A stretch of 64,000 nucleotides of DNA from a virus. Lineage: Duplodnaviria; Heunggongvirae; Uroviricota; Caudoviricetes. A model generated the notes under the pieces. The model did not search any database. It was not told the DNA's origin and saw nothing but the letters and a program-made list of their open reading frames with translations. The position numbers and the translations under genes are program-made. The stretch is from positions 1-64,000 of IMG/VR virus record IMGVR_UViG_3300035670_000138; one strand, written 5' to 3'. Below, piece after piece: positions 38,315 to 63,698 of this stretch (its first letter is position 1; each line of letters begins with the position of its first letter).

Positions 38315-38334
38315 CTATATATAGTTGTTAATTT
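38315..38334 (-). promoter_or_regulatory. conserved late motif copy 1 (- strand: AAATTAACAACTATATATAG); putative late promoter
   Basis: It is one of four near-identical 20-mers, each upstream of a - strand gene start. Confidence 0.5.
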
Positions 38335-38384
38335 AACTAAGTAAAATTATTAAAAAAATTCAAAAAACGAATAATATCAATACA

Positions 38385-38789
38385 TTAGTAAAAAATGATT
38401 GTTAGTCTGTATTTATTGTTAGCTTGTAACCCTGTAATATTATTTACTTGTATAAATCCTCCGGCTAACCTAGTGAAACTTATGAAGGGTTGCTGAGTGG
38501 GATATATACTTGGATTTGAAAGGTTTATAGCATCAATTACTTGATGTCCTCTTACTGTACTTAAATCTGTGGCAATTTTATTGTTTAGTAAAGGTTTACC
38601 TGTAGAATCAACTGTTATATCTACAGTTTTGATATTCTCGACCTTATTTTCAAAGTCAATTCTTTTATCGGCTAATTCTACAACTTCTTGCATAAAGGAG
38701 TTTAATATCCCTCCTAATTGTCCCATAGGTTGCTGTAGTTCTTCAGGAAAGTCTTCGGCACGTATTTGCCTTACATTATTTAATTTCAT
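38385..38789 (-). CDS. hypothetical virion-module protein (134 aa)
   Basis: ORF. Confidence 0.45.
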   Translation of the reverse strand: MKLNNVRQIRAEDFPEELQQPMGQLGGILNSFMQEVVELADKRIDFENKVENIKTVDITVDSTGKPLLNNKIATDLSTVRGHQVIDAINLSNPSIYPTQQPFISFTRLAGGFIQVNNITGLQANNKYRLTIIFY

Positions 38790-38797
38790 CTTATATC

Positions 38798-41700
38798 CTA
38801 TTTATAGGCTCTAGAAGATACTGCTCTAACAACTCCTGAGATACCTAAAATTCTGAAGTATTCTCTAGCATTTTCATGAACGAAAGCTAAACTTAAGTAT
38901 CTACATCTTTGTTTAGTTCTAGGTACTATATCTCTGAAAGGTATGTCATTACCATCTCCTCCCCAAAAGTGGTTAGGATCTGACCAAGGCATGTCCCCGA
39001 AATAACCTATTCCCTTACCTTTAAAAGGAACTTCTTCGAAGTCTTGAGCAACATCTGAAGCATATTTAGCAATAGCATCATTGAAGTTATTTTGGTCGAA
39101 CATTATCGAGATTTCTCTAACCTGTTTTAAAGCAGAAGGATCGCCAAAATGTTGAGGATTCCACTCGATTTCTTTATCGAAGTGTTTGTATACCATAATC
39201 TCTCCTTCTAGGAAAGGTCTGGCAGTATGAACAGTTATTTCATTTGTCTGAACGTCTACTTCAGTAATATATGCTTCATATACAACAGTTTCTGGCTTTT
39301 TATAACTTTTTATCGAAGTTATTGTATCAGGGAAGTTAAGTTCGTCAACTAGAGTTTCGGTTAACGTTCTATAGTTAGTACTGTTAAAAACTTTAGCAGT
39401 TATATTTACGGCATCTAAAGTTACTAAATAGTCGTTTAAATTCTGGAGCTTCTCTGCAATATCATCTCCTGCAGATACTTTAAATGAATCATACATTGTC
39501 GAGCTTATTGGAGGTACAATCCCTGAATCAAATTTGTCCATTTTATTTAACAATCTATTATTAACATAAGTAATAGTTACTAATTGAGTTTGAGTAATAA
39601 CATCGCTAGTCTTAACATCAGTTAGACTTGATATTACCATTTTATTTTCAACAACAGTTCCTTCTGATATTGTTCTAGTAAACTCTCTATCTGCATGATC
39701 CGTTCTATTACTATTTTTTCTTTCTTGCATTAAATAGTTTCTAGTAGAACTTCCTAAATATAGTCGATCATCTCTTGTTGCAACATATCCACAATTAGCG
39801 TCTATTTCCCATCTAGTCCATGTTCTTTCAAATATGTTATATCTAAAGGCTTGAGTTGCATATGTATCTGTAGTTTTAGTTGGAGCAAACATGATATAAG
39901 CTCTATCGTTTTCATAAGCAATACCGAAAGATAATAACTTGTAGTCAACTCTATGGTTAGCAAATGCATCGATTAGATTCTCAATTCCTCCAGAAATAAT
40001 GCCTACACCCGAGTCAGTTATTGTAACAATTCCTTGCTCAGTTAAGCAATATATTTGGTTATTTAAAACTCTAGCAGTATCTGGAGCAATAATCCTAGTA
40101 TTGTCAAGAAGTCTTACTGAAAAGTTTGGAGCCGAAGTTCCTGAAACGATAAATACTCCGTCTTCTTTTAGTACGAATAAATTATCTCTTAGAGCCAATA
40201 TTCTCCATATTTCCGCATCTTTTCCGCCAACATCAATATAGTTAACTATAGGTACTGCCTCTGGTTCATTTACTTTTGAGAAGTATAATCTATTTTGAGA
40301 TTCTAGATTGTCAGACTCTAAATCTGCTGTAAAAATTGCACTATTATCTACTAAAAATCCGTTAGTCATGTCGTCGCTATCTATCGTTACAAGATTCGCA
40401 ACAGGTATAGTAAAGCTATTAGCATCAACTACAGTTATTGTAAATATTCCCGATATTTCAGCAGGAGCGTCTAAATCTAATGCATCAGGTAAGAAAGATA
40501 CAAATACTTCATCTCCAGTTGAATATCCATGACCTGTTAATGTTATCTTTGTGGCAGGTCCTGTTCCCTGTAATCTCTCCATAGGTTTAGAGAAAGGAAC
40601 TTCAGGGCTAAATTCAAGCCCAATGCTTGTGTTAGCAGGTTCATCTATTGAAATGTAAAATTGTTTATCTTCTAAGGTTTTATTCTCTAAAAGGATAATA
40701 CCCGGCAAATCAGTTGAGCCTGATAAATAATATGCGTTTACTGGAGAATTTGAATCTCTGTTTATCGTTTTTACTAAGCTTCTAGCAGTTTCATCGATAG
40801 ATTGAGCTACTGAGATTAACCCTGAAAGAAGTACATCTCCTCCGGCTTCTGTGTCAAAATCTTCACCAGAACCTTGAGTTGTTACTGATATAGACCATCC
40901 TGTACCGATGTCTGTAGCAGGAGTATTAGTTATAGTAGTTATATCGTCTACTGAGCCATTATTTGCATGTAGTATTCTAATTTGATTAGCAGCTACTGTT
41001 GAACCTGTATCAAACGGATTTGTGACAGTTTCAATTAAAAAGTCGAAATTATCATTTAAAGCGTCGTATATAGCATCAACTATTTCTTGTTGAGTCATTC
41101 CTGTTGTTAAAGATACTCTATAGCCGAGTCTTCCTTCAATTTCAGGGTTAGTCCCTGTCCCGTCCTTATCGAACCATAGGTAAAACTTTCTTTCGTTATT
41201 TGATGAGTTTAATAGAATATACGAACTATTCGCAGTATCCGCAAATGTACCTGCAGTAATTGTAGTGTCTTCAGCTACACCTACAAAAGTATAGTATCTA
41301 GTTGTGTCTTCATTTCCGACAATAAATCTTGTTGAACCGCTAACAAAGTCGTCAATTGATAGTATGTTAAATTGTAATCTATGTCTAGACTTAGTGTTAG
41401 CATAGAACATTGAGTTTCTAAATAGCTCCATATCTAGCGATATTGGAGGAGGTTCGTTTGATTGAAGTATCCCTTGACCTGTTACTTGGTTTGTATATAA
41501 CGGAGCTGATGATGCTCTAAAGCTCTCAGGAACATTGTCTACAAACGATATTTCACCATTAGTTATATCCGAATCAAGGATGCTAGATTCGTATACTAAA
41601 TTCATCTCATCGCCCGGATCTAGATCGGTTAGTTCTAATCCTTCGACAGATTCGATATATGCAGTTCTATAAATTTGATAAAAGTAAGAAGTGGTTATAT

Positions 41701-42751
41701 TGTTAGGAACAGTTAAAGTTACTTCAACATTAGCACTATTTCCAACAGTAACAGAGCCGTCATTTGTTTTAGTTACAGTTATATTCGGAGTTCCACCTGA
41801 AGCTTCGCTTATATCTTGAATGTCGCCTTCTTCACTATTGGTAATTATTACTTTAGTATTATCTCCAATATCAATTTCAGTTGTTATTTCAGGGATATTA
41901 GCGGCTAGATCGTTGGCGAGTATTGCTGCAACTACGTCATTAGCAGTAGATCCTCCTGTCTGAATCTTAATATAAGTAGTGCCAATAGTGTCGGCTTTTT
42001 TAGGAGGGGTAGCTGTTCCAGATACTTCGAAATATACTGTATACTTTAGTTCTAGAGTATTTAATAGAAAATAGTCACCATTAGCAATACCTGCAGCATT
42101 ATCTATTTTTACAGAAGATGCTTCTAACACTTTAACGTCATCAGAATAATTGGTTACTACATATCTTGCACTCGGAGATCCGAGAATTAAATTATTATTT
42201 TCATCTTTGGTTCCAAATAAAATTCTGTATGCAACTTTTGATTGTGGAGGTAAAAATCCTCCGCCTGTTGCAGGAACAGTAACTGCGAAGAGGTCTGAAC
42301 CTTTTATACCTCCGGCATCTGTTATATTTAATGTACTAGTTGAAGACATTCCTGAGTTATTTTTTAACGATATCTTCTTAATACCTTCAGCAGTAGTGAT
42401 GTACATATTACCGTTAGATTCTTCCCACTTAATTCTATAGTTTTGTAGAACTTCTTGGAAAGATCCTGATACTGGCTGAAAATCAGAGTTTTCATCTTCA
42501 AACTCAAACTTATCAGCATAATATCTGATTATTCTATTTTTGTATTCTATAATTTGTTTGATAGTATTGGCAGTTGATTCTGTTCCGCCTGTTGCTCCGC
42601 CAAAGTCATTAAGACCTCTTCTTGGAGTGATAACTCCGTCTTCGTCTACGTTAACGTTAGTTGCTTTACGTAGAGAACCTTCAGGGGTAGATAACTCCGA
42701 ACCATTAGTTACTAACCCGTGGCACTTTATAAGATTAGCTCTTTGTGACAT
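38798..42751 (-). CDS. giant structural protein (1317 aa); likely a tail or particle-associated protein
   Basis: It is the longest ORF in the window and sits in the late operon. I recognise no catalytic motifs. Confidence 0.45.
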   Translation of the reverse strand: MSQRANLIKCHGLVTNGSELSTPEGSLRKATNVNVDEDGVITPRRGLNDFGGATGGTESTANTIKQIIEYKNRIIRYYADKFEFEDENSDFQPVSGSFQEVLQNYRIKWEESNGNMYITTAEGIKKISLKNNSGMSSTSTLNITDAGGIKGSDLFAVTVPATGGGFLPPQSKVAYRILFGTKDENNNLILGSPSARYVVTNYSDDVKVLEASSVKIDNAAGIANGDYFLLNTLELKYTVYFEVSGTATPPKKADTIGTTYIKIQTGGSTANDVVAAILANDLAANIPEITTEIDIGDNTKVIITNSEEGDIQDISEASGGTPNITVTKTNDGSVTVGNSANVEVTLTVPNNITTSYFYQIYRTAYIESVEGLELTDLDPGDEMNLVYESSILDSDITNGEISFVDNVPESFRASSAPLYTNQVTGQGILQSNEPPPISLDMELFRNSMFYANTKSRHRLQFNILSIDDFVSGSTRFIVGNEDTTRYYTFVGVAEDTTITAGTFADTANSSYILLNSSNNERKFYLWFDKDGTGTNPEIEGRLGYRVSLTTGMTQQEIVDAIYDALNDNFDFLIETVTNPFDTGSTVAANQIRILHANNGSVDDITTITNTPATDIGTGWSISVTTQGSGEDFDTEAGGDVLLSGLISVAQSIDETARSLVKTINRDSNSPVNAYYLSGSTDLPGIILLENKTLEDKQFYISIDEPANTSIGLEFSPEVPFSKPMERLQGTGPATKITLTGHGYSTGDEVFVSFLPDALDLDAPAEISGIFTITVVDANSFTIPVANLVTIDSDDMTNGFLVDNSAIFTADLESDNLESQNRLYFSKVNEPEAVPIVNYIDVGGKDAEIWRILALRDNLFVLKEDGVFIVSGTSAPNFSVRLLDNTRIIAPDTARVLNNQIYCLTEQGIVTITDSGVGIISGGIENLIDAFANHRVDYKLLSFGIAYENDRAYIMFAPTKTTDTYATQAFRYNIFERTWTRWEIDANCGYVATRDDRLYLGSSTRNYLMQERKNSNRTDHADREFTRTISEGTVVENKMVISSLTDVKTSDVITQTQLVTITYVNNRLLNKMDKFDSGIVPPISSTMYDSFKVSAGDDIAEKLQNLNDYLVTLDAVNITAKVFNSTNYRTLTETLVDELNFPDTITSIKSYKKPETVVYEAYITEVDVQTNEITVHTARPFLEGEIMVYKHFDKEIEWNPQHFGDPSALKQVREISIMFDQNNFNDAIAKYASDVAQDFEEVPFKGKGIGYFGDMPWSDPNHFWGGDGNDIPFRDIVPRTKQRCRYLSLAFVHENAREYFRILGISGVVRAVSSRAYK

Positions 42752-43740
42752 TAGTATCCTTTTCTACGTCTTATATTTCTATTTATAAAAACGTCGGTTA
42801 ATGTTCCATGTCTTGGTTTGATCTTCTTAGGGGCTAATTCTACCCTATCGTCGACAATTTGAACTGTTGATGTAACCATACGATCTAATCTAACTTTAGC
42901 GTTATTTAATCCTTCAGTATCTCCCATTGCCTCTAAGATATGAACTGCAGTTAATTGTGCAAGAACTGGGTGCATTTCTGTTGGGATATTTGGTACTGGA
43001 CTTTCTTCAGCAAATGTGATATAATCACCTTGTTTTATGTTTACAAGTTGATCTTGAATATCCGAAGTATTAAACGATATAGTTTTTAAAGAAGAGTTAA
43101 CCGTTGTAGGTTGTAAATCCCAAGATAATATTTTGTTAGGACTTTTACTGTCAACAATGTCGTATTTAATAGTGCTTCCTAAACTTCCGTCTGTTAGCTG
43201 AAATTTATTGGGCATAGTTACAAATGTAAATGTAGTTATTCCTGTGTTTAGATCGTTATTAATAGTTTTAATAACCCCTGCTTCGCTAGTTTTAGTTAGA
43301 ACATTTGGTCTAATATAAAAGTATACTCTAACATATTCATAGCTTCTTGTAGGTTGGATTAACTTAATCTGATTTCCTTCAATATAGAATTTATCCATAC
43401 CGTAGTTGCTATAAGCTTCGTCGTGGTCAGGAAGTTCGGATATACCAATTTGAGTTAATTCCCAAACCTGACTAGATTCAATTAAGCTGATATCCATTAC
43501 TTTATTACCAATTGCTCTATCTGGAATATTGTAGATACCTTCATTATTAGCAGGAATATCGATATGAGTAGCTAAATGTCCCTCTTTTATCGACAATAAC
43601 TTATCTAATAATTGAACGTCCATTTCCTCATTGGCAATAGCCAAAATGTTTGTATCATCAAATGTTCGGTTGTCACTAGGAACCATTGCCCTATTTCTAA
43701 CCGATTCGATTAGCTTATCGCCAGTAAGTATTCTAGACAT
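42751..43740 (-). CDS. hypothetical structural-module protein (329 aa)
   Basis: ORF. Its stop overlaps the start of the next gene (ATGA). Confidence 0.45.
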   Translation of the reverse strand: MSRILTGDKLIESVRNRAMVPSDNRTFDDTNILAIANEEMDVQLLDKLLSIKEGHLATHIDIPANNEGIYNIPDRAIGNKVMDISLIESSQVWELTQIGISELPDHDEAYSNYGMDKFYIEGNQIKLIQPTRSYEYVRVYFYIRPNVLTKTSEAGVIKTINNDLNTGITTFTFVTMPNKFQLTDGSLGSTIKYDIVDSKSPNKILSWDLQPTTVNSSLKTISFNTSDIQDQLVNIKQGDYITFAEESPVPNIPTEMHPVLAQLTAVHILEAMGDTEGLNNAKVRLDRMVTSTVQIVDDRVELAPKKIKPRHGTLTDVFINRNIRRRKGY

Positions 43741-43743
43741 TTA

Positions 43744-44019
43744 TTACCCCAATATTTTCTTTTTGATAGCTTCTTTATCTACTGAACCACAAGCTTCGCA
43801 ACCTTTGCCTTCACATTTTGGACAAGATTCTTCCTCGCCGTTTTCCATTAGTTCTTCAGCCATCTCAAGACCTTCTTTAAGACCTTCCGGTGAAGAAGCT
43901 CCTACAGTTACTTGCATTGGCTTTTTAGGTAGAATAGATTTGAAATCTTCTCTACTTTTTTGTTTCATTTTCCCCTTAAGCATTTTAAGCATTTCTTTTC
44001 TTGCTTCTAATTTGTCCAT
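43744..44019 (-). CDS. small zinc-ribbon protein (CPKCEGKGCEACG); first gene after late motif copy 2
   Basis: It has a Cys4 pattern and an acidic region. The motif lies 27 nt upstream. Confidence 0.45.
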   Translation of the reverse strand: MDKLEARKEMLKMLKGKMKQKSREDFKSILPKKPMQVTVGASSPEGLKEGLEMAEELMENGEEESCPKCEGKGCEACGSVDKEAIKKKILG

Positions 44020-44046: not shown

Positions 44047-44066
44047 CTATATATAGTTGTTAAATT
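44047..44066 (-). promoter_or_regulatory. conserved late motif copy 2 (- strand: AATTTAACAACTATATATAG)
   Basis: Same 20-mer as copy 1. Confidence 0.5.
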
Positions 44067-44115: not shown

Positions 44116-44637
44116 TTATATTATACTAAAGATTGGATTAATTCCGTTTTTCTTAAGTATATTACGTATTTGTGACGGTTTTATTAAATCAGGGCTATAA
44201 CCTGAGTAATTCTTGCAAATATAAGGAATTACATCTCTATATACCAATTCTGAACAATTCTGTCCGTCCTTAAATGGGTTAGTCGATTTTATTCCCAATC
44301 TCTTTAATTTATCAACTATAAATATACCTATATTCTGCAACATTCCATAATGTTCGCCACAGTTATCAAGAAGGTTATTTCTCATTAAATTATATGTTTC
44401 ATCATCAAGACTTACTTCATATGATTCCATTATCTCATTTTTATTTAAAAAACGAGTAATTGATATAAAGCTAACTCCTGAGCCTATTACTGAATGATAA
44501 ATAAAGTTCTGGTTTAAATGAGGAGTATCAAACTCTATAGAAACATGAGATACAGGGATACCTTCATACCATTGTAAAAGCTTGGAGAATATAGCTCCTT
44601 GTTTATTTCTAGTAAAATGTATTTTAAATGTTTTCAT
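44116..44637 (-). CDS. permuted papain-like (NlpC/P60 superfamily, YiiX/YaeF-type) putative amidase/peptidase
   Basis: The order His then Cys fits the permuted family: GIPVSHVSIEF, then a C-terminal GQNCSELVYRDV (CSELV is the Cys motif). Confidence 0.4.
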   Translation of the reverse strand: MKTFKIHFTRNKQGAIFSKLLQWYEGIPVSHVSIEFDTPHLNQNFIYHSVIGSGVSFISITRFLNKNEIMESYEVSLDDETYNLMRNNLLDNCGEHYGMLQNIGIFIVDKLKRLGIKSTNPFKDGQNCSELVYRDVIPYICKNYSGYSPDLIKPSQIRNILKKNGINPIFSII

Positions 44638-48073: not shown

Positions 48074-48093
48074 AATTTCCTTTTTTATTATAC

Positions 48094-48122
48094 ATTATAA
48101 CATAAAAGAGGGAGTTTGTCAA
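48094..48122 (-). promoter_or_regulatory. sigma70-like promoter on the - strand: TTGACA, 17-nt spacer, TATAAT
   Basis: Both hexamers are perfect. The -35 sits in the loop of the terminator hairpin. Confidence 0.45.
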
Positions 48123-48131
48123 CCCCCTCCC
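48101..48131 (-). terminator. intrinsic terminator (- strand: GGGAGgggg-ttgacaaa-CTCCC followed by TCTTTTAT)
   Basis: A GC-rich stem is followed by a U-run, immediately after the stop of 48141..49067. Confidence 0.5.
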
Positions 48132-52518: not shown

Positions 52519-52520
52519 TT

Positions 52521-53255: not shown

Positions 53256-55343
53256 TTATTTAATTCTTGCTATTGAGAAAGTGTTATTCGTTCCAGTTGT
53301 TACAGGAGTTACAGGTGCTCCCACTGTATTTCGTATTGTTATCTGTTGACCTTTTTGAGCGTATCCTACATACGAAGTTTGAGCTATAGCTTGTGACGAT
53401 ATTATTAGACCATCCGATTTTTGAGTTGAATCTATAAATATTGCAACTGCTAAACTTACACTAGCATTAGGTCTTGCTGATGCTCGAATTAAGTAATATC
53501 CACTAACAGGTATTGTATAAACTCCTGTGGAGGTGTTATAAGAATTGTGAGTATCAAAATCTTTAGTTTCATATATAAAATTAGATCCGTTGCCAACACT
53601 TGCACCACTTGTATTAGAATAACTAGCAGCAACAGTTTCTGTTTCCAATATTGTTTGCGGTTGAGCTAGTTTTTGGATATGGATGTGATGATACTGGGTT
53701 GTATTTGAAAGAGTTAAAGAATTTGCCGCTCTAAAGCTTAAAACTTGTCCTTTTGTTAATCTAAAGGTACCACTTATCTGATGTTCTGCTACTGTCGATC
53801 CTGCGAACCCTACAGCTTTATTTAATGTACCATCAATGTATGCATTAATTACTGTATTTGAAGATGTTGTAAAGTTCACAAACCCTTTAACATCGTAATC
53901 CCCTGTCTCAGGAGCAGTAAATTGCGTCCCATTCCATGAACCAGTTGTATCTTCAACCTCTGTAAAATCAATATTAGTTGTGTTAGCAGTTATAGCTGTT
54001 CCACCATTTCCTGCACCCCTTACTCTCACTTCTCTATTGCCAATATCTTCTGATTGGACAGAATTTGATGACCAACCTTGGACGGGTATTTCAAATTGAC
54101 CTGTTACTCCAAAAGGTGCTCCACCAAAAGACACGAAGCTAGATGACCAAAGATTGTATGAATATTGTAAAGCACTTCCTGAATTAGTTACAAATTGTAC
54201 CAACAACCTACTGTTATCATTAACGTCGACAGTAACAAATCCATGTCTTTCAACTCCACCATTTTCATTTGTAATAACTGTACCGACATTAGCGCTAACA
54301 TAAGAAGCGTTGGATGGTGTCTTTGATAAATCGACCTTGATTCCAGTAGGTAAATTAATTACATAAGTGCCACTTCCTGCTGTTCCCACACTAGATTGTA
54401 TAAAATCTAATCTACCTATAAATGAACTCCCTACTCTTTTTCCGTGAAATTTATCAACAACTATAGTACCCTTTGTTGGATTAGTTGTTGTTCCAGATAT
54501 AGGTATTGATCCATAATCTATCCAATCAGTCATAGCTGACCCATAACTAACTTCTCTAGGTCCCACTTGTACATTATCTAAGTTGACCGTATATGCACTT
54601 GCATTAGTTGAACTAACGTGCAATATTAATCTGTATGAAGTAGAAGTGGCATCAGATTGGAACCACGCTAAATGAGTTCCTTGCGTCCCCTTTAAATCTT
54701 CTCCATTACAGCGAATTAATCTTGAATTAGTTACGTCATAAATCTGTACTCTTATATCATTATCGTCATAATCAGCCGAAGTTAAGTAATCAAAGCTAAT
54801 ATATAATTTCTTAGATAAGTCAGCTTTTTCAATTGTGAAAGGTATACTAACACCTTCACCTTGTCTGTTTACTGCAGTTTTAGTCAATAAAAAGTCGGCA
54901 GTATCTCTCAAAGGAGTTGTCGTATTTCTAGTAAATGTGATGTTTGGAGATCCACCAGTTCCATCTACAGCGTTAGCTCCTGCTGCGTCAGCATATGTAG
55001 ACCACCCGTCAGTATTTAACTCAGCGTCAGGATTACTAATATAGTTAATTCCGCCTTGTCCAGATCCCACTTCCGCTAAAGCTGCATCTAAAACTTGATA
55101 CATCTTTTTAGCGTCTGTTGCGAAGCATAGTTGACCGTTTGAAGCAGTCAAAGCATAAGTTTGAAGGTTTGATAAAGTATCTTTCTTTACGTCGGCTCTA
55201 ACCGGACTTTGGATTGATGCAGAAATTACATCTGATCCATTTATGTCACATGTCGAGTCTAATGTCTTATTTTCGAGAGTCTGTGAACTATCTAAGTCCG
55301 TAACTCCCGTTGGTTTTTGTCCTGATGCTAAACTAGTTGCCAT
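53256..55343 (-). CDS. tail-fibre/receptor-binding-like protein (695 aa) with a C-terminal C1q/TNF-like pattern
   Basis: It shares the N-terminal module SIQSPVRADVKKDTLSNLQTYALTASNGQLCFATDAKKMYQV with the 646-aa fibre. The C-terminus is GVYTIPVSGYYLIRASARP... Confidence 0.5.
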   Translation of the reverse strand: MATSLASGQKPTGVTDLDSSQTLENKTLDSTCDINGSDVISASIQSPVRADVKKDTLSNLQTYALTASNGQLCFATDAKKMYQVLDAALAEVGSGQGGINYISNPDAELNTDGWSTYADAAGANAVDGTGGSPNITFTRNTTTPLRDTADFLLTKTAVNRQGEGVSIPFTIEKADLSKKLYISFDYLTSADYDDNDIRVQIYDVTNSRLIRCNGEDLKGTQGTHLAWFQSDATSTSYRLILHVSSTNASAYTVNLDNVQVGPREVSYGSAMTDWIDYGSIPISGTTTNPTKGTIVVDKFHGKRVGSSFIGRLDFIQSSVGTAGSGTYVINLPTGIKVDLSKTPSNASYVSANVGTVITNENGGVERHGFVTVDVNDNSRLLVQFVTNSGSALQYSYNLWSSSFVSFGGAPFGVTGQFEIPVQGWSSNSVQSEDIGNREVRVRGAGNGGTAITANTTNIDFTEVEDTTGSWNGTQFTAPETGDYDVKGFVNFTTSSNTVINAYIDGTLNKAVGFAGSTVAEHQISGTFRLTKGQVLSFRAANSLTLSNTTQYHHIHIQKLAQPQTILETETVAASYSNTSGASVGNGSNFIYETKDFDTHNSYNTSTGVYTIPVSGYYLIRASARPNASVSLAVAIFIDSTQKSDGLIISSQAIAQTSYVGYAQKGQQITIRNTVGAPVTPVTTGTNNTFSIARIK

Positions 55344-55359
55344 ATTATTCTCCTATTAT

Positions 55360-55593
55360 TTACCCGTTATATTTAAGCCATTTTTGTAAAGGACATTCTT
55401 CTTGTCTAAATTTCGTTTTAGCTGATAAAAAACATCCACATTTCGAACATTGATTTGTAGTTTTTATCCTATATTCACAATCATTACATATATCTTGTCT
55501 TTGACTTGATACTATTTCCGGTACGCTTTGATCTACACCTTTAGCAGCATTAGCTGCAATTGTGAATAAACTTTTCATTCCAGATTTAAGCAT
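55360..55593 (-). CDS. small Cys-rich protein (77 aa)
   Basis: It carries about 8 Cys in C-x2-C spacing: CNDCEYRIKTTNQCSKCGCF...EEC. Confidence 0.4.
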   Translation of the reverse strand: MLKSGMKSLFTIAANAAKGVDQSVPEIVSSQRQDICNDCEYRIKTTNQCSKCGCFLSAKTKFRQEECPLQKWLKYNG

Positions 55594-56086
55594 TAGCTAC
55601 CTCTTCCTTTTGCATTTTCTGAATATTCTCCAGAATTTGATCAAGCATTGGTAAGTTAAATCCGTCTACTTTTCCTAAAAATCCATACTCATTTTCAGCG
55701 TCTATACTAGATCCGTGAAACACGAAGAATTTAGGTACTTGTATTGGAGCTTTTAAAACTAACTCTCCATTTTCATCTCTAGCAAGTCTTGTTAAAGCCT
55801 TACCTTTAGCATCATAAATTACGTCACCATCTTCATCTTTTATTTCTTCCATTACTGGTTGTTTTTCAGTAAAGTTAGAATAGAAATCGTAAACAGCTTG
55901 GTTATTTAGTTCCATTTCAAAAAACTTGTAATCTTGGAACTTTTTAGGCAGTTCTGCATATCCTTCTTTTGCTTCAGAACATGCAGAACACCCATTAACC
56001 CAAATCATTAGTACTGATAATTGATCTTTTTTAAGTTCGTCTAAATTTTCAACTTGTAGCGTATTAACATTCACGTTAGACTCCAT
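55586..56086 (-). CDS. thioredoxin-fold protein with a CxxC motif (WVNGCSACS)
   Basis: The CSAC motif follows a W. A downstream VPKFFVF resembles the Trx cis-Pro strand. Confidence 0.4.
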   Translation of the reverse strand: MESNVNVNTLQVENLDELKKDQLSVLMIWVNGCSACSEAKEGYAELPKKFQDYKFFEMELNNQAVYDFYSNFTEKQPVMEEIKDEDGDVIYDAKGKALTRLARDENGELVLKAPIQVPKFFVFHGSSIDAENEYGFLGKVDGFNLPMLDQILENIQKMQKEEVANA

Positions 56087-56091
56087 TTATT

Positions 56092-58617
56092 TTACCATTC
56101 GTCTGTTTCTATGTAGTTGTCTGGAAGTTCACATATTTTTAAATAAGATGCACTAGTTGGAGGAGTTTGACCATTCAAAATAACATTCGTCATATCTGTC
56201 AGGTCAACTCTTATTGTTGAATTTAAAGGTTGAAATGGCCCAAATGTTTCACTGAATGAATCCCTAAATAGCACCAAGTTGCTAGCTCCCCCAATCACCA
56301 CAGCAATGTCAGTGCCGTCACCATATTCAACTCTGGCAGTAAATGTTTTTTGATTATTTACCACTGTAGACTCTAAAACTTGAAATCTGTACGCTAATGT
56401 GTATTTTTTTGTTAAATCCAAATTGTTAAAAGTTAACGCTGAAACGATGCCAGTGCTACTTGTAGTTGAAGTCATGTATTTTGTCTGACATTTCACGTTT
56501 TTATTATCATTCAAATTTTTAACAATGCCTGCTAGATCAGGTTCTTGCTTAATTGTTAGCCAATGTAAATTGGATAAGTTTTGAACTGTAAATCCTGTGT
56601 TTGATCTAATAGCAAGTTTATCTCCTGCGTTTAAATAAACGACACCTTGAATATGATGAGATTGAGCTGCACCAATATTTCCACTTAATGAAATGCTTTG
56701 GTTAAACCCTAATCCTGTATCTATATATGCATAAAATACTGGATCAATACTCCCTGCTGCTCTAATATTACCAGATATAGAATAGAACCCTGCTCCATCG
56801 CTAGGTACAGTCATATATCTATTAGCAGAATCCCATATTGAAAAAGGATCAGATAGTTCATTAAACTGGATATTTCCTGTATTTGCTGCAATTATGCTTG
56901 CATTATCATTTCCGTCTAGTCTGACATTATAAAGCTCAGTACTCTTAATCTGCTCGAATTGTCCGACAATCATTGTAGATTTTGATGTAGGTTTATAATC
57001 TACAGTAATATCAGCTCTTAAGTTACTGCCTGTATAAGGCATATTTACTAATTCACAAGCACCCGCTCCTGCGGTTAATGCTACACTTTGTAAATCAAAT
57101 TTAGTAGCAGAACTTAAATCTGATGATAAGTTTAATACAAAAGTTTTGGAACTATCCCAATTATCTCCGTTTGGGATATAACTAGCACTCACAGACGTGT
57201 GGTTAGTTGAGCCGTCGCTATATCTCCATAAGCAAGCACTATTCACAGTGTTAAAAACATTAACAAATCCTCCATTTACAGTTATATGATACTGTCCTGC
57301 TTTACTTCCGGCAGGTAAAATAAAATGTGGAGTTTTTGTCCCATCGTGACTAATATCTATATTTAAAGATGAAGTAGGATTATTACAATCCGCATCTGCT
57401 ACATATGATTGCCACGAGGTAGTCTTGGTATTTGACCAAATACAATTTGCAGAAGGAGCAAATGTTAAAGTTCCTAATGTTCTTGCTAATTCTGTAGTTT
57501 GTTGTGTTACAATTGTAGTTTTTGGAGGGTAGTAATAAACTGATGCAGTTAATTTTCCTTGAGTTGGAGAATTTATGATTGTTGCGTTTAATCCTGTTGT
57601 TTGAGTTATTGCTCCCAATTGAAATTGTTTCAAACTAGCGGAACTACTATTTGCAACAAATGTTATACTAGCTTCACTTCCTTGAGTTGAAACTCCTCCT
57701 GTATCAAAATAAATACCCCCGCCGTAAAAAGTATTACTACCGTCACTGATATACTGATACAGCCTACCAGTGGCACTATAATTACTCGTAAATGATCCAT
57801 TGAATACTATCTTATAACTTCCAATTTTTGTATTTAACTGAAAAGCCGGAATTTTAGTAGACGGAGCAATTAAATCTCCTGTCACCGATGGAGTAGGACA
57901 GTCTGCATCGGCAGTATATCCAGTAAAAGTTGAATTAGATGTAGTTTGACCCCAATCACAATTTGTAGTTCCTGCCCATGTAATAGTTCCGACCAATTCA
58001 CCTTGAGCAACTTCAAATCCATAAGAACTCGGAGTCAACCCTACGAAAGGCTGATCAATATATACATCACCAGTTACTCCAATTGTAGACTCTACTATAA
58101 AGCCCATTTCAGTTCCGCCGATAACTACTGGTAGCTCATATTGCTTCCACTTATTAGTAGCTGATACTGGTAGCGTAGATAACTTAACTCCATCTTGAAC
58201 TGAAGATATTTGTAAGTTTTGAACACTAGTTCTAATCCATACTGAAACAGTACCTTGAATCTCATGTAATGATGAATCAACTGGAGCTTGGAATTGAATA
58301 GATCCTACTGATCCAGAAAATGTAGCTTTGATTGATTTATTGTTATCGTCAATTGGTAAGAATGTTACTGTATCAACAGCAGAAGTTACGTTAACTAAGT
58401 CTGGAGTTAGTTTTTCAAACTCAGGCATTAAGTTACCACCAATTCCTGCTGATCCGCCTACACTAGACCAATCTGCTGAAGTAGCATCATAACGCTTTAT
58501 CTTGTTATCGTCAGTTGAATCTGCAATTAAATCCCCTGCTTCAGGGTTTACAATTTCTGAAGGGTCTATCGGATTTAACGTAAGACCGTTTTTTACTTTA
58601 AAGCTATTTTTACTCAT
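56092..58617 (-). CDS. tail-fibre/spike-like protein (841 aa)
   Basis: The N-terminus reads FKVKNGLTLNP. It is S/T/N/G-rich and β-rich, and its C-terminus resembles that of the 695-aa protein. Confidence 0.45.
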   Translation of the reverse strand: MSKNSFKVKNGLTLNPIDPSEIVNPEAGDLIADSTDDNKIKRYDATSADWSSVGGSAGIGGNLMPEFEKLTPDLVNVTSAVDTVTFLPIDDNNKSIKATFSGSVGSIQFQAPVDSSLHEIQGTVSVWIRTSVQNLQISSVQDGVKLSTLPVSATNKWKQYELPVVIGGTEMGFIVESTIGVTGDVYIDQPFVGLTPSSYGFEVAQGELVGTITWAGTTNCDWGQTTSNSTFTGYTADADCPTPSVTGDLIAPSTKIPAFQLNTKIGSYKIVFNGSFTSNYSATGRLYQYISDGSNTFYGGGIYFDTGGVSTQGSEASITFVANSSSASLKQFQLGAITQTTGLNATIINSPTQGKLTASVYYYPPKTTIVTQQTTELARTLGTLTFAPSANCIWSNTKTTSWQSYVADADCNNPTSSLNIDISHDGTKTPHFILPAGSKAGQYHITVNGGFVNVFNTVNSACLWRYSDGSTNHTSVSASYIPNGDNWDSSKTFVLNLSSDLSSATKFDLQSVALTAGAGACELVNMPYTGSNLRADITVDYKPTSKSTMIVGQFEQIKSTELYNVRLDGNDNASIIAANTGNIQFNELSDPFSIWDSANRYMTVPSDGAGFYSISGNIRAAGSIDPVFYAYIDTGLGFNQSISLSGNIGAAQSHHIQGVVYLNAGDKLAIRSNTGFTVQNLSNLHWLTIKQEPDLAGIVKNLNDNKNVKCQTKYMTSTTSSTGIVSALTFNNLDLTKKYTLAYRFQVLESTVVNNQKTFTARVEYGDGTDIAVVIGGASNLVLFRDSFSETFGPFQPLNSTIRVDLTDMTNVILNGQTPPTSASYLKICELPDNYIETDEW

Positions 58618-58655
58618 TTTATTCTCCTAAGTTCACTTTCCGTTAGGTTTGTATA

Positions 58656-58856
58656 TTATAATTTTGGTTGTATTACATTATCAATAATTTCTAGTTCAGG
58701 CTTTAATACTGATACCCACTGGTTATCAATAAAAGCTATTGTATATTGCTCAGTAATTTCAGGTAAGTCACCTGAAACAGAGTTTTCTGGTTGTTCGTCA
58801 GTTTCTACTGACTCTATGAAAATTTTTGTATCTGCATCAAATTTATGAAATAACAT
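58656..58856 (-). CDS. hypothetical small protein (66 aa)
   Basis: ORF. Confidence 0.35.
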   Translation of the reverse strand: MLFHKFDADTKIFIESVETDEQPENSVSGDLPEITEQYTIAFIDNQWVSVLKPELEIIDNVIQPKL

Positions 58857-58863
58857 ATATCTC

Positions 58864-59643
58864 CTATAACTTTATGATGTAATTAACTAATGAATTTTGT
58901 GGTCTTGTTTCGGTTACTATGCCTGTATTGTTTGCTGTACTCTTAGTATAGGTCCCAAGTAATCCTCCCCCGTCGCCATCTGGAGCTAAACACTGAGAAC
59001 CGCCTCCTGCTCTTGTGTTATAGTTGTGACTTATATTATGTCCGTGAGCCTTTATTGCTTCATCTTGAACCGAACCTACATTGTTACCACTATTACCTCC
59101 AACTCCGTTAACAGTTCTACTGGATGCATCTGGATCTTCATATTGAATAATAACTGCACTATTTGTTCCTGAAATAGCTATTTTAGTCCCAGCTAAAGCA
59201 TTAGCTTTAGACGTAGCGAAAGCTAGTGTATTTGAATTAATTACTATAGCATAATAATCAATACTAACTGCTAAACCAGTTAAAGTTCCACTTGATAATC
59301 TTACTTTAAATCCTGTTCTATTTATACCGTGGTTAGTAAATGTTGCATTATTAGAAGAAGGAGTCCCTGAACCTGAAACAGTTGATATATCCACCTTACC
59401 TCTAAGAAAGCTACCTCTAAGGTCCGGTAAGTTAAAAGTAGTACTACCATCCCCATTACCCCAAGAAGTTCCTATAGCAGCAAATAATGCAGCATATGTA
59501 CTTCTACTTAAAGTAGTTCCGTTACACAAAACCCATCCCTCCGGTGCAGTAGCTCCTGCAAAAGGAACCACAGTTCCCGAAGGAAACTGAACAGGGAATA
59601 AAGCTAATTCATTTGTTGATTTTCTTTTAGTTCCGCTTGCCAT
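58864..59643 (-). CDS. tail-fibre protein with a phage tail-collar domain and a Gly-rich C-terminus
   Basis: The segment PEGWVLCNGTTLSRSTYAALFAAIGTSWGNGDGSTTFNLPDLRGSFLRG matches the tail-collar (T4 gp12-type) domain. Confidence 0.65.
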   Translation of the reverse strand: MASGTKRKSTNELALFPVQFPSGTVVPFAGATAPEGWVLCNGTTLSRSTYAALFAAIGTSWGNGDGSTTFNLPDLRGSFLRGKVDISTVSGSGTPSSNNATFTNHGINRTGFKVRLSSGTLTGLAVSIDYYAIVINSNTLAFATSKANALAGTKIAISGTNSAVIIQYEDPDASSRTVNGVGGNSGNNVGSVQDEAIKAHGHNISHNYNTRAGGGSQCLAPDGDGGGLLGTYTKSTANNTGIVTETRPQNSLVNYIIKL

Positions 59644-59645
59644 TA

Positions 59646-61586
59646 TTATACCTCAAATAAGTTTTTAATATCTAGTTGTAATTTACTAACATAACCCGTT
59701 CCTGCTAAGTTCGAGCTTGTATATAACAATTGTCCCGTTACGTCTATACTAAAAGTAACTCCTGCATCATCTCCTGAAAAATCGTCAGATAATGACCAAG
59801 TGTTAGCTGTAGTTTTATATGATAATCTTAACTGACCGACTTGAGAAGCCTCATTTGAATCAGTTGATCTATAAATGCTATAATTAATTATCGCTGCTCT
59901 GAACCCATCAAAAATCGCTCCAGTTACTGCCGTAGGAGAAGCTTGGTTATTTGTGATAGTTGCTCCACTTATAGTAACTTCTCTGTTAAATTCAGCAGAA
60001 GCTGCTAAGTCTGGTAGAACTAAAATTTCAGTAGCAGATATTGCTTTACCTAAAATAATTTGGTAAGTATTTGTTTGAGTAGGCTTAGGTTGAACATAAT
60101 TGCCGGGAGTTGAAGGATCTGCATAAACAAATTCTCCTGCTGTTAATCCCGAGAATCCACCTAATTTACCTGAGATAACAATATCTACTGGAGCAGCTCC
60201 GGCAGTTGCCTCTCTTGTAAAACCAATAAATTCAATCTTAGCATCATCAGTACAATCTAATTTATTTACTTGACCGATTGAGCTAATATATACTGCAGTT
60301 CTAATTGCCATCGGCTCGTTTGCAGTAATTGTAACAACTTGTTCTTGAACAAAAGCTCCATTCCAAGTTGAACCATTTTTCTGTAAGAATTGTTTATCTT
60401 CAGAAGCTGAAACATCAACATCGGCAAGATCGTTTAACGGAGTTTGTTCTCCAACAACGCTAGGTCTATAAACCATAACTTGTAAAAAGTTAGCACTTTC
60501 TACGAAGAATAAAGGGTTAGAATAATCAGTTGTTGGTTCAGTCGATGTCGGCTGTCCTAACACTGAGTTAGATAGAAAGTAGTACTGTCCTACTGTAAAT
60601 CCGTGAGCAGGAACTTCTACTCTACCGAATTGGTAAGCAACAAAGCTATCTACATCAGGAACTTCAGTAACTACGAAAGTAGCAAGAGTTGCGCCTGAAT
60701 TAGCTTGTCCTTTAACCCAAGAAGTACCATTGTGATAAATACCGTTACCAACAGATAGTCCGTGAGCAACTTGATCTATTTCAATAGTGGTTCCACCTGC
60801 TCCGCCTACTGGCTGAAGTTCGTTTGCAATAATTTGGAACATTTTAAGTTCGTCTGTTGCAAATACTAACTGTCCATTAGTTGCAGTTAATGCATATGTT
60901 TCTAAGTTAGCTAAAGTATCTTGTTTTACGTCCAATCTTGTTGGAGTTTGGATACTAGCATTTGTAATTGTTCCGTTATTTGCTAACGCTCTTGTATCAA
61001 TGTCTGATTGTAGCTCGTTTACAGCTCCCTGAAGGTCTGTAGCAGCTAAATTGCCTGAAGGTACGTTAGATATAGCTGAAGCGTCGTGAGCGTCTACAGC
61101 GTCGTTTAAGTGGTTAGTAAGGTCACTAGCTAAAGCTTTTGTTTGTAAAGCAGCGTCAACATCATCTAAAGCTGTCTGAAGGTTACTACCTAGTACTTCA
61201 ACATTACCTGTTGGATCATAAGCTATTTCAGAAGCTTCGTTTTGTCCTGCTAATCCGTTATCAATATAAGTCTTTACTGCTAAAGCTGAAGGGATTTGAG
61301 TGTTTGATGCACCTGATAAACCCGTGTCGGTGTTCAACACCCCAGACTTTAGATTATCTGTTTCTAAATTACTAACAGTGTTATTATCAGCATCGATTGA
61401 TTTATTAGTTAATGTCTGAGTTTGATTCTCAGTAACAACAGATCTGTCTGCTGCATTTAAACGTATTTTGAGTTTGTTATCATTACTGTCAACTGACATT
61501 TCACCGTCAGATGAGTGAGTATTTACAGTCAAGTCGGTTGGCTTTAACTTGACTCCTATATCTAACTTTTTTCTAACTTTAGCCAT
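59646..61586 (-). CDS. tail-fibre-like protein (646 aa), modular paralog of 50113..52155 and 53256..55343
   Basis: It shares modules with both paralogs (see findings). Confidence 0.55.
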   Translation of the reverse strand: MAKVRKKLDIGVKLKPTDLTVNTHSSDGEMSVDSNDNKLKIRLNAADRSVVTENQTQTLTNKSIDADNNTVSNLETDNLKSGVLNTDTGLSGASNTQIPSALAVKTYIDNGLAGQNEASEIAYDPTGNVEVLGSNLQTALDDVDAALQTKALASDLTNHLNDAVDAHDASAISNVPSGNLAATDLQGAVNELQSDIDTRALANNGTITNASIQTPTRLDVKQDTLANLETYALTATNGQLVFATDELKMFQIIANELQPVGGAGGTTIEIDQVAHGLSVGNGIYHNGTSWVKGQANSGATLATFVVTEVPDVDSFVAYQFGRVEVPAHGFTVGQYYFLSNSVLGQPTSTEPTTDYSNPLFFVESANFLQVMVYRPSVVGEQTPLNDLADVDVSASEDKQFLQKNGSTWNGAFVQEQVVTITANEPMAIRTAVYISSIGQVNKLDCTDDAKIEFIGFTREATAGAAPVDIVISGKLGGFSGLTAGEFVYADPSTPGNYVQPKPTQTNTYQIILGKAISATEILVLPDLAASAEFNREVTISGATITNNQASPTAVTGAIFDGFRAAIINYSIYRSTDSNEASQVGQLRLSYKTTANTWSLSDDFSGDDAGVTFSIDVTGQLLYTSSNLAGTGYVSKLQLDIKNLFEV

Positions 61587-61601
61587 TATATTCTCCTAAA
61601 T

Positions 61602-62072
61602 TTATAGTGCAGATTCGTCGATAATTGCTTTAGCTTTATACTTAATGCTAAGACCGTTTGGAGCATCATCAGGATCAGCAACAGTTTCAAATCTAAACTG
61701 ACCTCCGACTGTATCAAATGAAACATTGGTATCTTCTCCAACAAATTCTGAGTTTATTAAAAATACAGAACCGTTATAGACTCCTTCAATTGTAAATGAT
61801 TCATATTTTGTAGGATTTACATTGAACTCTCTAGTAATCATTCCTTCGATAAAAACTCTTTGAACAAAGCTTGTATCAAATTGAAGACCTGATATATCAC
61901 CAGAAGTACCTGCTAATATTGTTTCAGTTGTAGATATGTCTCCGGGACCTTTTACTTCTTTTAAAGCGTCGGTTACAGCTTCTGCCCATCCTGTAGCTTC
62001 TTCACCATAGTTAGAAGATCCAGTGACGGGGTATTCAAAAATCTCTTCTCCGACCTGTAAATTTTTAGACAT
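61602..62072 (-). CDS. hypothetical structural protein (156 aa); first gene after late motif copy 3
   Basis: The motif lies 8 nt upstream of its ATG. Confidence 0.45.
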   Translation of the reverse strand: MSKNLQVGEEIFEYPVTGSSNYGEEATGWAEAVTDALKEVKGPGDISTTETILAGTSGDISGLQFDTSFVQRVFIEGMITREFNVNPTKYESFTIEGVYNGSVFLINSEFVGEDTNVSFDTVGGQFRFETVADPDDAPNGLSIKYKAKAIIDESAL

Positions 62073-62080: not shown

Positions 62081-62100
62081 CTATATATAGTTGTTAATTT
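62081..62100 (-). promoter_or_regulatory. conserved late motif copy 3 (- strand: AAATTAACAACTATATATAG)
   Basis: Same 20-mer as copies 1 and 2. Confidence 0.5.
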
Positions 62101-62151: not shown

Positions 62152-62195
62152 ATAATAAAAAAGCCCCATCAGAACGACAGGGCTAAAAGGAAGGA
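62152..62195 (-). terminator. intrinsic terminator after the capsid gene (- strand: AGCCC-13 nt loop-GGGCT followed by TTTTTTATTAT)
   Basis: A stem and U-run lie 20 nt after the stop of 62214..63488. Confidence 0.4.
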
Positions 62196-62213
62196 TTTTA
62201 TGATTACATCAAA

Positions 62214-63488
62214 TTATGAAACTGCGATGTATCTTAATTGACAGATAGAAGCAGGTCTAGATGTGAAAAGAGCTTGGTCAGTATGACATCTCATTTCAAC
62301 ACCATGATATCCTTCTAGTAACTCTAAGTATTCCTCACCATCTGGTCTTTTGAAAGTAACTTCTTGAGAACCAATTCTCTTGAAATCTTTTTCACAGATT
62401 AAGTAAGAATACCCTTCTTTTACGAAAGTAGAAGCAACAACTTTGATAATCCCGTTTTGTCCGTAGAATTGTAATTCTCTAGCACCTGAGATTTCTTTGT
62501 TAGGGTTATAAGATGAGTCAGAAACTCTCTTAGCATCTTGTTCAGTTAAAAGGTCATTCCACTGCTTAGGGTTAACATAGCAAGTAACTTCTTCTTCCAT
62601 TAAACCTTTTTCAACCATTGCTTCAATACCTTCTTCGATTTTAGCAAGCGAAAGAACTGCAGGAGTTACGTCAGTACCTACGTCAACGATAGAACCTTGG
62701 AATAATGGCTCATTAGCATTTGCAATACCAAATAGAGAAGTTCTTTCTTGAGCGATACCGTGGATACCGATAAACTCGTTCTTCTCTGGAGAAGAAATAT
62801 CTTCTTTGGCAGCACCTTTGAAGAAAATTAAATCGTTAGCAACAATTTCAGCTACACCAAAGTTACCTGCTGACTTCTTTAAAGTAACAGTTTTATCTTT
62901 TAAAGAATAACCTTGGATAGTATAAATACCTCTCTTAGTAGCTAAGTTTGAAGAGAAAACTTCAACTTCAGCACCAGTTGTACCGTTCCAAATACCTGCA
63001 GCCCATTCAGCATCTTTAATTTCAATGTCGGCAGTAGGTGCACCATCTATGTTATTAGTTTTAACTACGCCAATACCTGATTGTCCGTAGAACATTTGTA
63101 CTTCTAATCTGTGGTACATAGACTTAAGCATGTTACCAACCATTAGGTCCATTGCTTTTTCGATTGATTGAGAGCTATCTTTTGATCTCGATAAAGCACC
63201 GATAGAAATAGCTGATCTTAAAACTAACTCTCTAGCTTTAATTAAAGCTTCTTGCATTTTAAATTCTTTTACTTGATTAAGTTCGAAAAGTGATCCACTT
63301 TCCCCTGCGTATGTAAATCCCGATTCAAGAGATAAAATTACAGGTTCATTGTACGATTTACCCATTTTTTTAGATGAATCGAATTTAATAGCGTTAAATA
63401 ATTTTACATGGTCTGGAACTAATTTAGCAACTTTGTCGCTATATCTTTCCTTAAAAAGACCGTTTAGTGTACTTACTTGGTTTGACAT
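62214..63488 (-). CDS. putative major capsid protein (424 aa)
   Basis: The call rests on context. It follows a scaffold-like ORF and a late motif, it is followed by a terminator, and its size fits HK97-fold capsid proteins. I recognise no diagnostic motif. Confidence 0.45.
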   Translation of the reverse strand: MSNQVSTLNGLFKERYSDKVAKLVPDHVKLFNAIKFDSSKKMGKSYNEPVILSLESGFTYAGESGSLFELNQVKEFKMQEALIKARELVLRSAISIGALSRSKDSSQSIEKAMDLMVGNMLKSMYHRLEVQMFYGQSGIGVVKTNNIDGAPTADIEIKDAEWAAGIWNGTTGAEVEVFSSNLATKRGIYTIQGYSLKDKTVTLKKSAGNFGVAEIVANDLIFFKGAAKEDISSPEKNEFIGIHGIAQERTSLFGIANANEPLFQGSIVDVGTDVTPAVLSLAKIEEGIEAMVEKGLMEEEVTCYVNPKQWNDLLTEQDAKRVSDSSYNPNKEISGARELQFYGQNGIIKVVASTFVKEGYSYLICEKDFKRIGSQEVTFKRPDGEEYLELLEGYHGVEMRCHTDQALFTSRPASICQLRYIAVS

Positions 63489-63678
63489 TTTGTATTCTCC
63501 TTAGAATGTTTATTTTTTTAGTTTTGTCAAAGATTTTTGTTGCTAAAAACTTTATAATATGGTATTCTCTAACAGAGCTTCAATCTTAATAAAGGTATGA
63601 AGATGTTACAAGAAGCCTTTTTTACATTGCTTTTAATGTTCAAAAGTCTTTAAACCGGAGAAGTAATTATACCTCTCC

Positions 63679-63698
63679 GATATATAGTTGTTAATTTT
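63679..63698 (-). promoter_or_regulatory. conserved late motif copy 4 (- strand: AAATTAACAACTATATATCG), followed by a hairpin and a roughly 190-nt leader
   Basis: One mismatch to the other copies. It lies upstream of the capsid gene. Confidence 0.45.

Follow-up and report, generated by a model that had tools for sequence, protein, structure and literature searches.

The 64,000-nt stretch analysed here (the window; positions 1 to 64,000 of the IMG/VR virus record IMGVR_UViG_3300035670_000138) carries, ahead of its virion genes, repeated copies of a 20-base motif, which reads AAATTAACAACTATATATAG on the - strand and corresponds to the + strand pattern CTATATATAGTTGTTAAWTT. The sequence evidence strongly supports the reading of this motif as the late-gene promoter of a widespread family of uncultured tailed phages with genomes of about 79 kb. 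The promoter would consist of one uninterrupted element about 24 bp long, and its reader appears to be encoded by the phage. The window has a G+C content of 33% and is organised in two converging modules. The + strand module (1-30.1 kb) encodes an amidase, a ribonucleotide reductase (RNR), a PD-(D/E)XK nuclease, an Erf protein, a primase-helicase, a family B DNA polymerase (PolB), an AAA+ ATPase, a thymidylate synthase, an exonuclease, a dUTPase, a MazZ-like pyrophosphohydrolase and ClpP-like proteases. The - strand module (30.1-64 kb) encodes the virion proteins, and the motif is confined to it.

The pattern search located four copies of the motif on the late strand, three of them with no mismatches and one with a single mismatch (Table 1). 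This agrees with the claim of an earlier reading of the window made from the letters alone (the sequence-only reading), except that copy 4 begins at 63678 and not, as was stated there, at 63679. All four copies are intergenic and lie on the strand of the late genes 8-189 nt 5′ of a start codon, and the spacings to the - strand gene starts reported earlier proved to be right. The mismatch scan of the window gave four sites at 0-1 mismatch and the next best only at 4/20; the four sites form a discrete class, because the scan was empty between one and four mismatches. At a threshold of no more than 3 mismatches the chance expectation is 0.11 matches, and five matches were seen in none of 100 dinucleotide shuffles. 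One further match recorded in the window at this threshold (44306-44325, 3 mismatches) lies within a gene and in the opposite orientation. The analysis confirmed the terminator that had been predicted ahead of copy 3, after the putative capsid gene; it has a 10-bp stem and then a T run. The statement that the late module has no intergenic gaps other than those with the motif was wrong, as 48074-48140 and 53151-53255 are also non-coding.

Exact-protein look-ups retrieved contigs of the same phage (L060 and L009 in our numbering) that reach 10.8 kb beyond the end of the window. This part of the genome includes a scaffold-like gene, a portal gene (P22_portal, with a weak SU10_portal match), a large terminase gene and six small genes, past which lie a divergent intergenic region and then small early genes in the opposite orientation. 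The search for further copies elsewhere in the genome, which the sequence-only reading had proposed, yielded two more in this region, one at the terminase-portal junction, 11 nt ahead of the portal ATG, and the other at the head of the late cluster. The genome of the window phage contains at least six copies, all on a single strand, and these copies split the virion module into units running from the cluster head to the terminase, from the portal to the scaffold, across the capsid gene, across the tail genes and across two sets of large virion proteins.

Deposited phages demonstrate no DNA similarity to the late module (megablast), and their best protein matches, at about 23-30% identity, belong to a Silvanigrella phage without the motif. 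An exact scan of IMG/VR for the 17-mer TTAACAACTATATATAG gave 54 loci, and many contigs were matched two or three times. Most of these contigs belong to relatives of the window phage, with capsid proteins 37-76% identical and terminases and portals 37-72% identical to its own. The 17-mer is exact across relatives whose proteins share only 35-75% identity, and the motif is found at the same gene junctions as in the window phage; the copy-1 orthologue is present in L013/L052 and L006/L235. A terminase-profile search of IMG/VR extended the family to at least 364 relatives, the large contigs of which are mostly 70-87 kb long, several of them about 79 kb. Occurrences of the 12-mer TTAACAACTATA were counted in 957 kb of family DNA oriented by the terminase; the late strand has 95 of them and the other strand none, against an expectation of 0.37 per strand. 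A start codon follows within 400 nt in 120/126 unique copies, at a median distance of 26.5 nt. The genes of RNR and PolB were also tried as anchors for relatives and were rejected, since the contigs so obtained (L055-L057, L151) share that single gene only and are not relatives. A literature search for the core sequence returned irrelevant papers only.

The 12-mer is missing from relatives that are more distant (38-49% terminase identity). These possess repeated variants of their own at the homologous junctions, namely where the late cluster begins, between terminase and portal, and around the capsid gene. These variants are TTAGCAACTATA, TTGACAACTATA, TTAACAAGTATA, TTAACAAGTTA, TTAACAAATAT, TTAACAAATAA, TAACAACTAAATATAG, TTAACAACTTA and AATAACACCCTTAT, and they are usually followed by T(A/G)G and purines. 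The 17-mer was also searched for in 185,579 bacterial and archaeal species, with one genome per species (596 Gb in total). The 84 loci found, 83 of which are single matches, correspond approximately to the level of chance; enrichment was seen in none of the species genomes, and the sole relative is an 8.4-kb phage contig binned into a metagenome-assembled genome. As far as sequence comparison can tell, it is shown that the motif is not a host promoter and that its specificity drifts with the phage lineage. This indicates that the reader of the motif is encoded by the phage.

It is very improbable that the motif is not a promoter but serves in RNA processing, in translational control as an operator, in packaging or replication, or in the binding of a repressor or a structural DNA-binding protein. 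A dimer could bind the 10-bp palindrome CTATATATAG, and in the relatives one copy, within a non-coding region of 1.7 kb, has no gene downstream of it. However, the orientation bias is absolute, 95 vs 0, though the palindromic half would permit both orientations, and the copy in the non-coding region precedes a conserved non-coding sequence, as would be expected for a promoter-driven RNA. An operator of translation is at odds with distances to the start codon ranging from 8 to more than 200 nt. The cluster-head copy has neither a co-directional gene nor a host-type promoter upstream, and the leader hairpins described below are anchored at the 3′ end of the motif; both observations also argue for a promoter.

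The architecture of the element was derived from an information profile of 135 unique family copies, in which the invariance of positions -16 to -5 is fixed by the search pattern itself. With the terminal G taken as +1, the information content forms one continuous block from about -20 to +4, comprising an A/T bias from -20 to -17, the invariant TTAACAACTATA from -16 to -5 and TATA from -4 to -1. Position +1 is G in 67/135 copies, and positions +1 to +4 are purine-rich and poor in C. Within the motif, variability is greatest at positions -4 to -1, which change freely among the variants. No conservation was observed near -35 among the 135 unique copies, and in the window only copies 4 (11/12) and 1 (10/12) fit a pair of host sigma-70 hexamers 16-18 bp apart, in both cases through TTAACA.

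The sequence-only reading had compared the TATATA core with T4-type late promoters. In this scheme a TATAAATA-like -10 element would be read by a gp55-like sigma factor with a gp33 co-activator and a sliding clamp. The motif does contain a TATATATA run and resembles the T4 late promoters in having an A/T-rich, TATA-type run near the start, no -35 element and late structural genes downstream; the family B DNA polymerase and the adjoining AAA+ ATPase recall a T4-like replisome as well. T4-type late promoters are a bare 8-bp element. In the motif, by contrast, specificity is carried by a block of 12 bp that precedes the TATA run, and it is this block, invariant within a lineage, that differs from one lineage to another, while the TATA run is the least conserved part. 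In addition, none of the ORFs (open reading frames) of the window matched a PHROG or Pfam family of gp55, gp33 or the clamp (gp45). The architecture, in which the TATA run is the variable part, excludes both an ordinary host promoter and the T4 type, and the scheme with gp55-like sigma is very improbable.

The position of the transcription start is suggested by the leaders. Copy 3 reads ...TATATAG-AGGTAATT-ATG, and its ribosome-binding site GAGG begins at the putative +1. The late-cluster-head copy reads ...TATATAG-GAGACATGCT-ATG, and, since no co-directional gene or host-type promoter lies upstream of it, the transcript bearing its ribosome-binding site has to start at or before the terminal G. 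Transcription probably starts at the terminal G or no more than about 2 nt away from it, about 4-5 nt past the invariant block.

These considerations also bear on a scheme in which TATA(T/A)A would serve the host sigma-70 as its -10 element, while recognition of the -35 region would be replaced by a DNA-binding activator of the phage that sits on TTAACAAC, as with T4 MotA/AsiA or with the late activators of other phages. The hexamer after the box is the canonical TATAAT in L195, L185 and L199, there is no -35 element, host-type transcription evidently works in the window phage, and the variation of the box among lineages fits a co-evolving DNA-binding protein. On the other hand, the hexamer of other lineages is not -10-like (TTAACT, TAAGGT, TTAGAT), and a start 7 nt past the hexamer would deprive the first late gene of its ribosome-binding site (L060 1751, L198 6872) and cut into the anchored hairpins of the capsid leaders. 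The box directly abuts the -10 hexamer, and to our knowledge no activator works in such a geometry. Besides, no helix-turn-helix activator was identified; the structural model of a 120-aa candidate (29196-29558) was unusable, with a pLDDT (predicted local distance difference test) score of 52. This scheme is quite improbable.

The cassette around the capsid gene provides further evidence on the start site. The putative major capsid gene was assigned by its position after the portal gene and the genes of 115-aa and 330-aa scaffold-like proteins; its product has no family match of its own, the only match being one of 23% to an unannotated phage, and it shows 37-76% identity to its homologues in the relatives. 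In the relatives, the orthologous copy-4 site precedes the capsid-gene homologue. The putative copy-4 transcript opens with a 9-bp stem-loop, the first base of which is the last base of the motif, and its first 45 nt have a folding energy of -17.2 kcal/mol (z = -5.1). In 8/10 orthologous capsid leaders, hairpins of unrelated sequence begin 0-2 nt from the same motif position (17), even where the four or five preceding bases differ. The possibility that 5′ hairpins are a general trait of motif transcripts was rejected, as they were found in 9.5% of cases vs 6.3% in controls; the trait belongs to the capsid leaders only. Re-initiation at copy 3 after the capsid terminator, as proposed by the sequence-only reading, fits the layout, and it seems that the combination of an own promoter, a 5′ stem-loop and a strong terminator, with subsequent re-initiation at copy 3, would yield a very abundant monocistronic capsid mRNA. 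Copy 4 also represents the sigma-70-type match TTAACA-N17-TATAAT (63666-63694, -), the match of copy 1 being weaker, so judging from its sequence the capsid gene could be served by both host-type and phage-type initiation.

Thus, the proposal of a late promoter that needs a phage-specific factor is backed by the bias in strand and position, the conservation across relatives, the lineage variants, the lack of enrichment in bacteria and the leader hairpins. The late timing of the promoter, like its start site, is inferred.

In the + strand module, intergenic host-type promoters are evident. Besides the promoter listed in Table 1, elements of the TTGACA-N17-TATAAT type start at 2072, 4289 and 28327, so the host holoenzyme can express the early and middle genes. 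A host-type promoter is present inside the late module as well. It overlaps a terminator hairpin at 48094-48140 and is not a motif copy but a 12/12 match to the TG-extended sigma-70 consensus TTGACA-N17-TATAAT; it follows that part of the virion module may be transcribed by the host enzyme. The genes at 47852-44116 lie downstream of this promoter.

The closest analogues of the motif are the sigma-dependent promoters of phage phiEco32 and the T7-type promoters, with which the T4 comparison should be replaced. In phiEco32, a single-element promoter, tAATGTAtA, directs starts 6-8 bp downstream (PMC8948821). The corresponding factor, gp36, is only a distant homologue of sigma and was found by mass spectrometry of the RNA polymerase of infected cells (PMC12276001); it shares 15% identity with gp47 of phage 7-11, and such factors can escape sequence methods (PMC8948821). 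Both phiEco32 and the window phage are podoviruses of about 77-79 kb, in which the late cluster is opposed to an early/middle cluster with host sigma-70 promoters and in which one element without a -35 box stands ahead of the middle/late genes. In both groups the consensus shifts between related phages, as it does between phiEco32 and 7-11, and the portal of the window phage shows the weak SU10_portal match mentioned above. Nevertheless, the consensus of the motif is different from that of phiEco32 and longer, with 12 invariant and about 8 biased positions vs 9.

By this analogy, the chances are about even that the reader is a phage sigma-like factor acting on the host core polymerase in the manner of phiEco32 gp36. 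In such a mechanism, the host polymerase with its ordinary sigma would transcribe the nucleotide-metabolism and replication genes of the + strand. A small, highly divergent sigma-like specificity subunit, the product of an early or middle gene, would then replace the host sigma on the host core enzyme and read one extended element without a -35 box. Host core with a small factor is likelier, because the other strand is driven by host-type promoters and a perfect host-type promoter is located inside the late module. None of the large ORFs without assignment is polymerase-like, and dozens of small ORFs have no assignment; the phiEco32 model fits because of the genome layout, the host-type early promoters, the many unassigned small genes and the absence of a polymerase-sized unknown.

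Several observations weigh against this sigma-like reader. The ORFs of the window contain no sigma-70 region 2/4 domain, no PHROG sigma family and nothing like gp36 or gp79 of phiEco32, and phmmer and jackhmmer found no similarity to gp36. The only sigma candidate that was modelled, a 197-aa protein beside the end of the late module (29512-30105), was rejected; it is conserved, but with only 11 homologues, and its AlphaFold model is a generic helical bundle (pLDDT 65) with no significant fold match in the PDB. Moreover, the inferred start lies 4-5 nt past the invariant 12-mer, a borderline distance given the 6-8 bp typical of sigma-read elements, and in several copies (copy 3, L060 1751 and L198) the ribosome-binding site begins at the terminal G. 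The tight start and the ribosome-binding sites at +1 fit a T7-type enzyme better.

Such an enzyme, a phage RNA polymerase that is either a single-subunit protein encoded in the unseen 4-5 kb of the genome or a non-canonical one among the unassigned proteins, would make the motif a T7-type promoter. With the promoters of T7, T3 and SP6 the motif shares a contiguous element, of about 19-23 bp from about -17 to +4/+6 there and extending from -20 to +4 here, which has no separate -35 box and the 3′ part of which holds the start (a putative one in the present case), an A/T upstream edge, a specificity block, TATA, G at +1 and following purines. It is identical to the T7 promoter phi1.1A at 13/22 positions in a +1-anchored register (AC.ACT...TATAGAG), but this register is not the unique best, since TA repeats give 12/21 at another offset. 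The ribosome-binding sites and the 5′ stem-loop beginning at +1 would also suit such a promoter, as would a specificity that drifts with lineage in the way it does among T7, T3 and SP6. The capsid gene with its own promoter, leader stem-loop and terminator recalls the phi10/Tphi arrangement of T7. There is also a precedent in Lactococcus phage KSY1, a 79-kb podovirus with a 610-aa RNA polymerase and annotated phage promoters, although these promoters (GAGATACAAAAATAACTAATA...) are not similar to the motif. The local polymerase profile described below also matched KSY1 (L229) gp033 (15987-18446; E = 8e-7), besides the annotated polymerase gp014, and the sequence suggests that KSY1 may have a second polymerase-like protein.

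In the present study, however, it was not possible to find a homologue of either a polymerase or a sigma factor in the window, its flanks or the relatives. The ORFs of the window contain no Pfam RNA_pol domain and no PHROG polymerase family. About 4300 six-frame ORFs from the window and the family loci were scored with a local hidden Markov model (HMM) built from the catalytic domains of the T7, KSY1, N4 gp16 and Xp10 polymerases, and by phmmer with these proteins and with phiEco32 gp36 as queries; every score was below 8 bits. Strict T7 polymerase motif patterns and a search for DxDGD in the large ORFs gave nothing convincing. The 1317-, 841- and 956-aa virion proteins were considered as hidden polymerases and discarded, with no PDB match by phmmer or profile, and a 285-aa protein (4413-5270) gave only a short match, to designed TPR proteins. 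Exact-pattern scans, two on metagenome contigs and one on IMG/VR, found no contig that closes the genome; the contigs obtained by exact-protein look-ups all break in one paralogue-rich or non-coding region, and about 4-5 kb of the genome of the window phage lies outside the retrieved sequence. The equivalent stretch was read in two relatives, from the cluster head through the early genes to the nuclease/Erf homologues, and contains only small ORFs, a 1.7-kb non-coding region, a GHKL ATPase, MoxR/VWA proteins and a deaminase, with no polymerase. Furthermore, host-type and not phage promoters serve the early and middle genes throughout, those of replication included. The T7 model fits the fine structure better than the phiEco32 model but lacks its defining enzyme, and a T7-type reader is on balance unlikely.

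The searches agree with the sequence-only reading in that no late sigma or activator was identifiable in the window. It is possible, though doubtful, that the reader is detectably related neither to sigma-70 factors nor to T7-like or multisubunit polymerases and represents a new class of specificity subunit or polymerase.

The coordinates of the motif copies and of the associated features are collected in Table 1.

Table 1. Motif copies, transcription units and other features of the window phage and its relatives (window positions; contig labels precede positions on contigs).
Feature	Position	Strand	Details
Motif copy 1	38315-38334	-	0 mismatches; 23 nt ahead of ATG at 38291
Motif copy 2 (AATTTAACAACTATATATAG)	44047-44066	-	0 mismatches; 27 nt ahead of ATG at 44019
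Motif copy 3	62081-62100	-	0 mismatches; 8 nt ahead of start codon at 62072
Motif copy 4 (AAATTAACAACTATATATCG; + strand CGATATATAG)	63678-63697	-	1 mismatch; 189-nt leader to putative capsid gene start at 63488
Unit after copy 1	30095-38291	-	558-, 114-, 956-, 977- (lysozyme domain) and 117-aa proteins
Unit after copy 2	38385-44019	-	91-, 329-, 1317- and 134-aa proteins, each conserved in relatives
Unit after copy 3	48141-62072	-	15 structural/tail genes
Putative major capsid gene (424 aa)	62214-63488	-	Follows portal, 115-aa and 330-aa scaffold-like genes
Intrinsic terminator 3′ of capsid gene (AGCCCTGTCG-TTC-TGATGGGGCT then TTTTTT)	62162-62184	-	10-bp stem; -13.5 kcal/mol
Copy-4 stem-loop (GGAGAGGUA-UAAU-UACUUCUCC)	63657-63678	-	First base is last base of copy 4 (putative +1)
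Host-type promoter TTGACA-N17-TATACT	26803-26831	+	Early/middle module
Terminator hairpin (GGGAGGGGG...CTCCCTC then TTTT) with overlapping promoter	48094-48140	-	-21.4 kcal/mol; late module
Genes with common C-terminal module	5862-6251, 20276-20713, 20698-21072, 21076-21468, 26235-26576	+	Also L009 1061-3551; first ORF of L058/L241
Early-cluster non-coding region	L154 2120-3830; L037 ~400; L171 4587; L172 4187; L174 3411		Relatives

The products of the unit after copy 3 include proteins of 156, 646, 259 (Collar domain), 66, 841, 166, 77, 695, 209, 117, 680, 337 and 308 aa, among others. Those of the unit after copy 1 are probably ejection and lysis-associated virion proteins.

The 1.7-kb non-coding region of the early cluster of the relatives carries its motif copy ahead of a conserved non-coding sequence (AAGACCGTTAAAAAATG...). 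The contig L009 of the window phage ends in the equivalent non-coding region, which has TTGGCA-type repeats. By analogy with the T7 promoters found at replication origins, this region may be an origin or a genome terminus. Another non-coding feature was observed about 8 kb past the end of the window, where the divergent early/late region (L060 1236-1780) includes a segment of about 250 nt that is rich in G+C and free of ORFs, with a sigma-70-like promoter on one side and a hairpin terminator on the other. A search of Rfam found no family for this segment, which adjoins the first late promoter and may encode a non-coding RNA of the phage.

A common C-terminal module of about 25 aa follows unrelated N-termini in at least 14 small proteins of the window phage, and it reads YPN(T/S)x(L/I)FKxLYPNGxExxGFWxV. 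Eight of these proteins are encoded by tandem early genes, and the assemblies of the window phage break in this paralogue region. The most conserved of the middle genes encodes a MazZ-like dATP/dGTP pyrophosphohydrolase (24238-24594, +; Pfam dGTP_diPhyd_N, PHROG 801), with 74% identity in L235. It adjoins the dUTPase gene and is located near the genes of thymidylate synthase and RNR, and no PurZ was seen; this gene and its neighbours hint, by their sequences, at altered nucleotide pools. The GHKL-type ATPase of the relatives is a protein of 638-696 aa (L243 12480-17811, L246 11229-13316), and its cassette is absent from the window. In L243, the ATPase gene is followed by genes of MoxR-like AAA+ and VWA/metallopeptidase (DUF2201) proteins, situated between the early and the recombination genes.

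Pairs of phage promoters and their readers, such as those of T7, SP6, T4 gp55, N4 and phiEco32, have played a central part both in our understanding of transcription and in the tools of molecular biology. The motif is a sharply defined promoter in this respect: 12 of its bases are invariant across phages with 35-75% protein identity, and nature supplies a series of specificity variants. The motif also offers a ready operon map for annotating the genomes of the family. The main interest lies in the fact that an abundant family of uncultured phages has no recognisable RNA polymerase or sigma factor able to read the motif. The search for the reader is tractable through the co-variation of promoter variants and proteins over hundreds of contigs, or through the expression of candidates. 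Should the reader be only a divergent sigma, it would be an ordinary addition to a known class. If, instead, it belongs to a new class, this class would be common to the at least 364 terminase relatives in IMG/VR and would have co-evolved with a T7-like single-element promoter.

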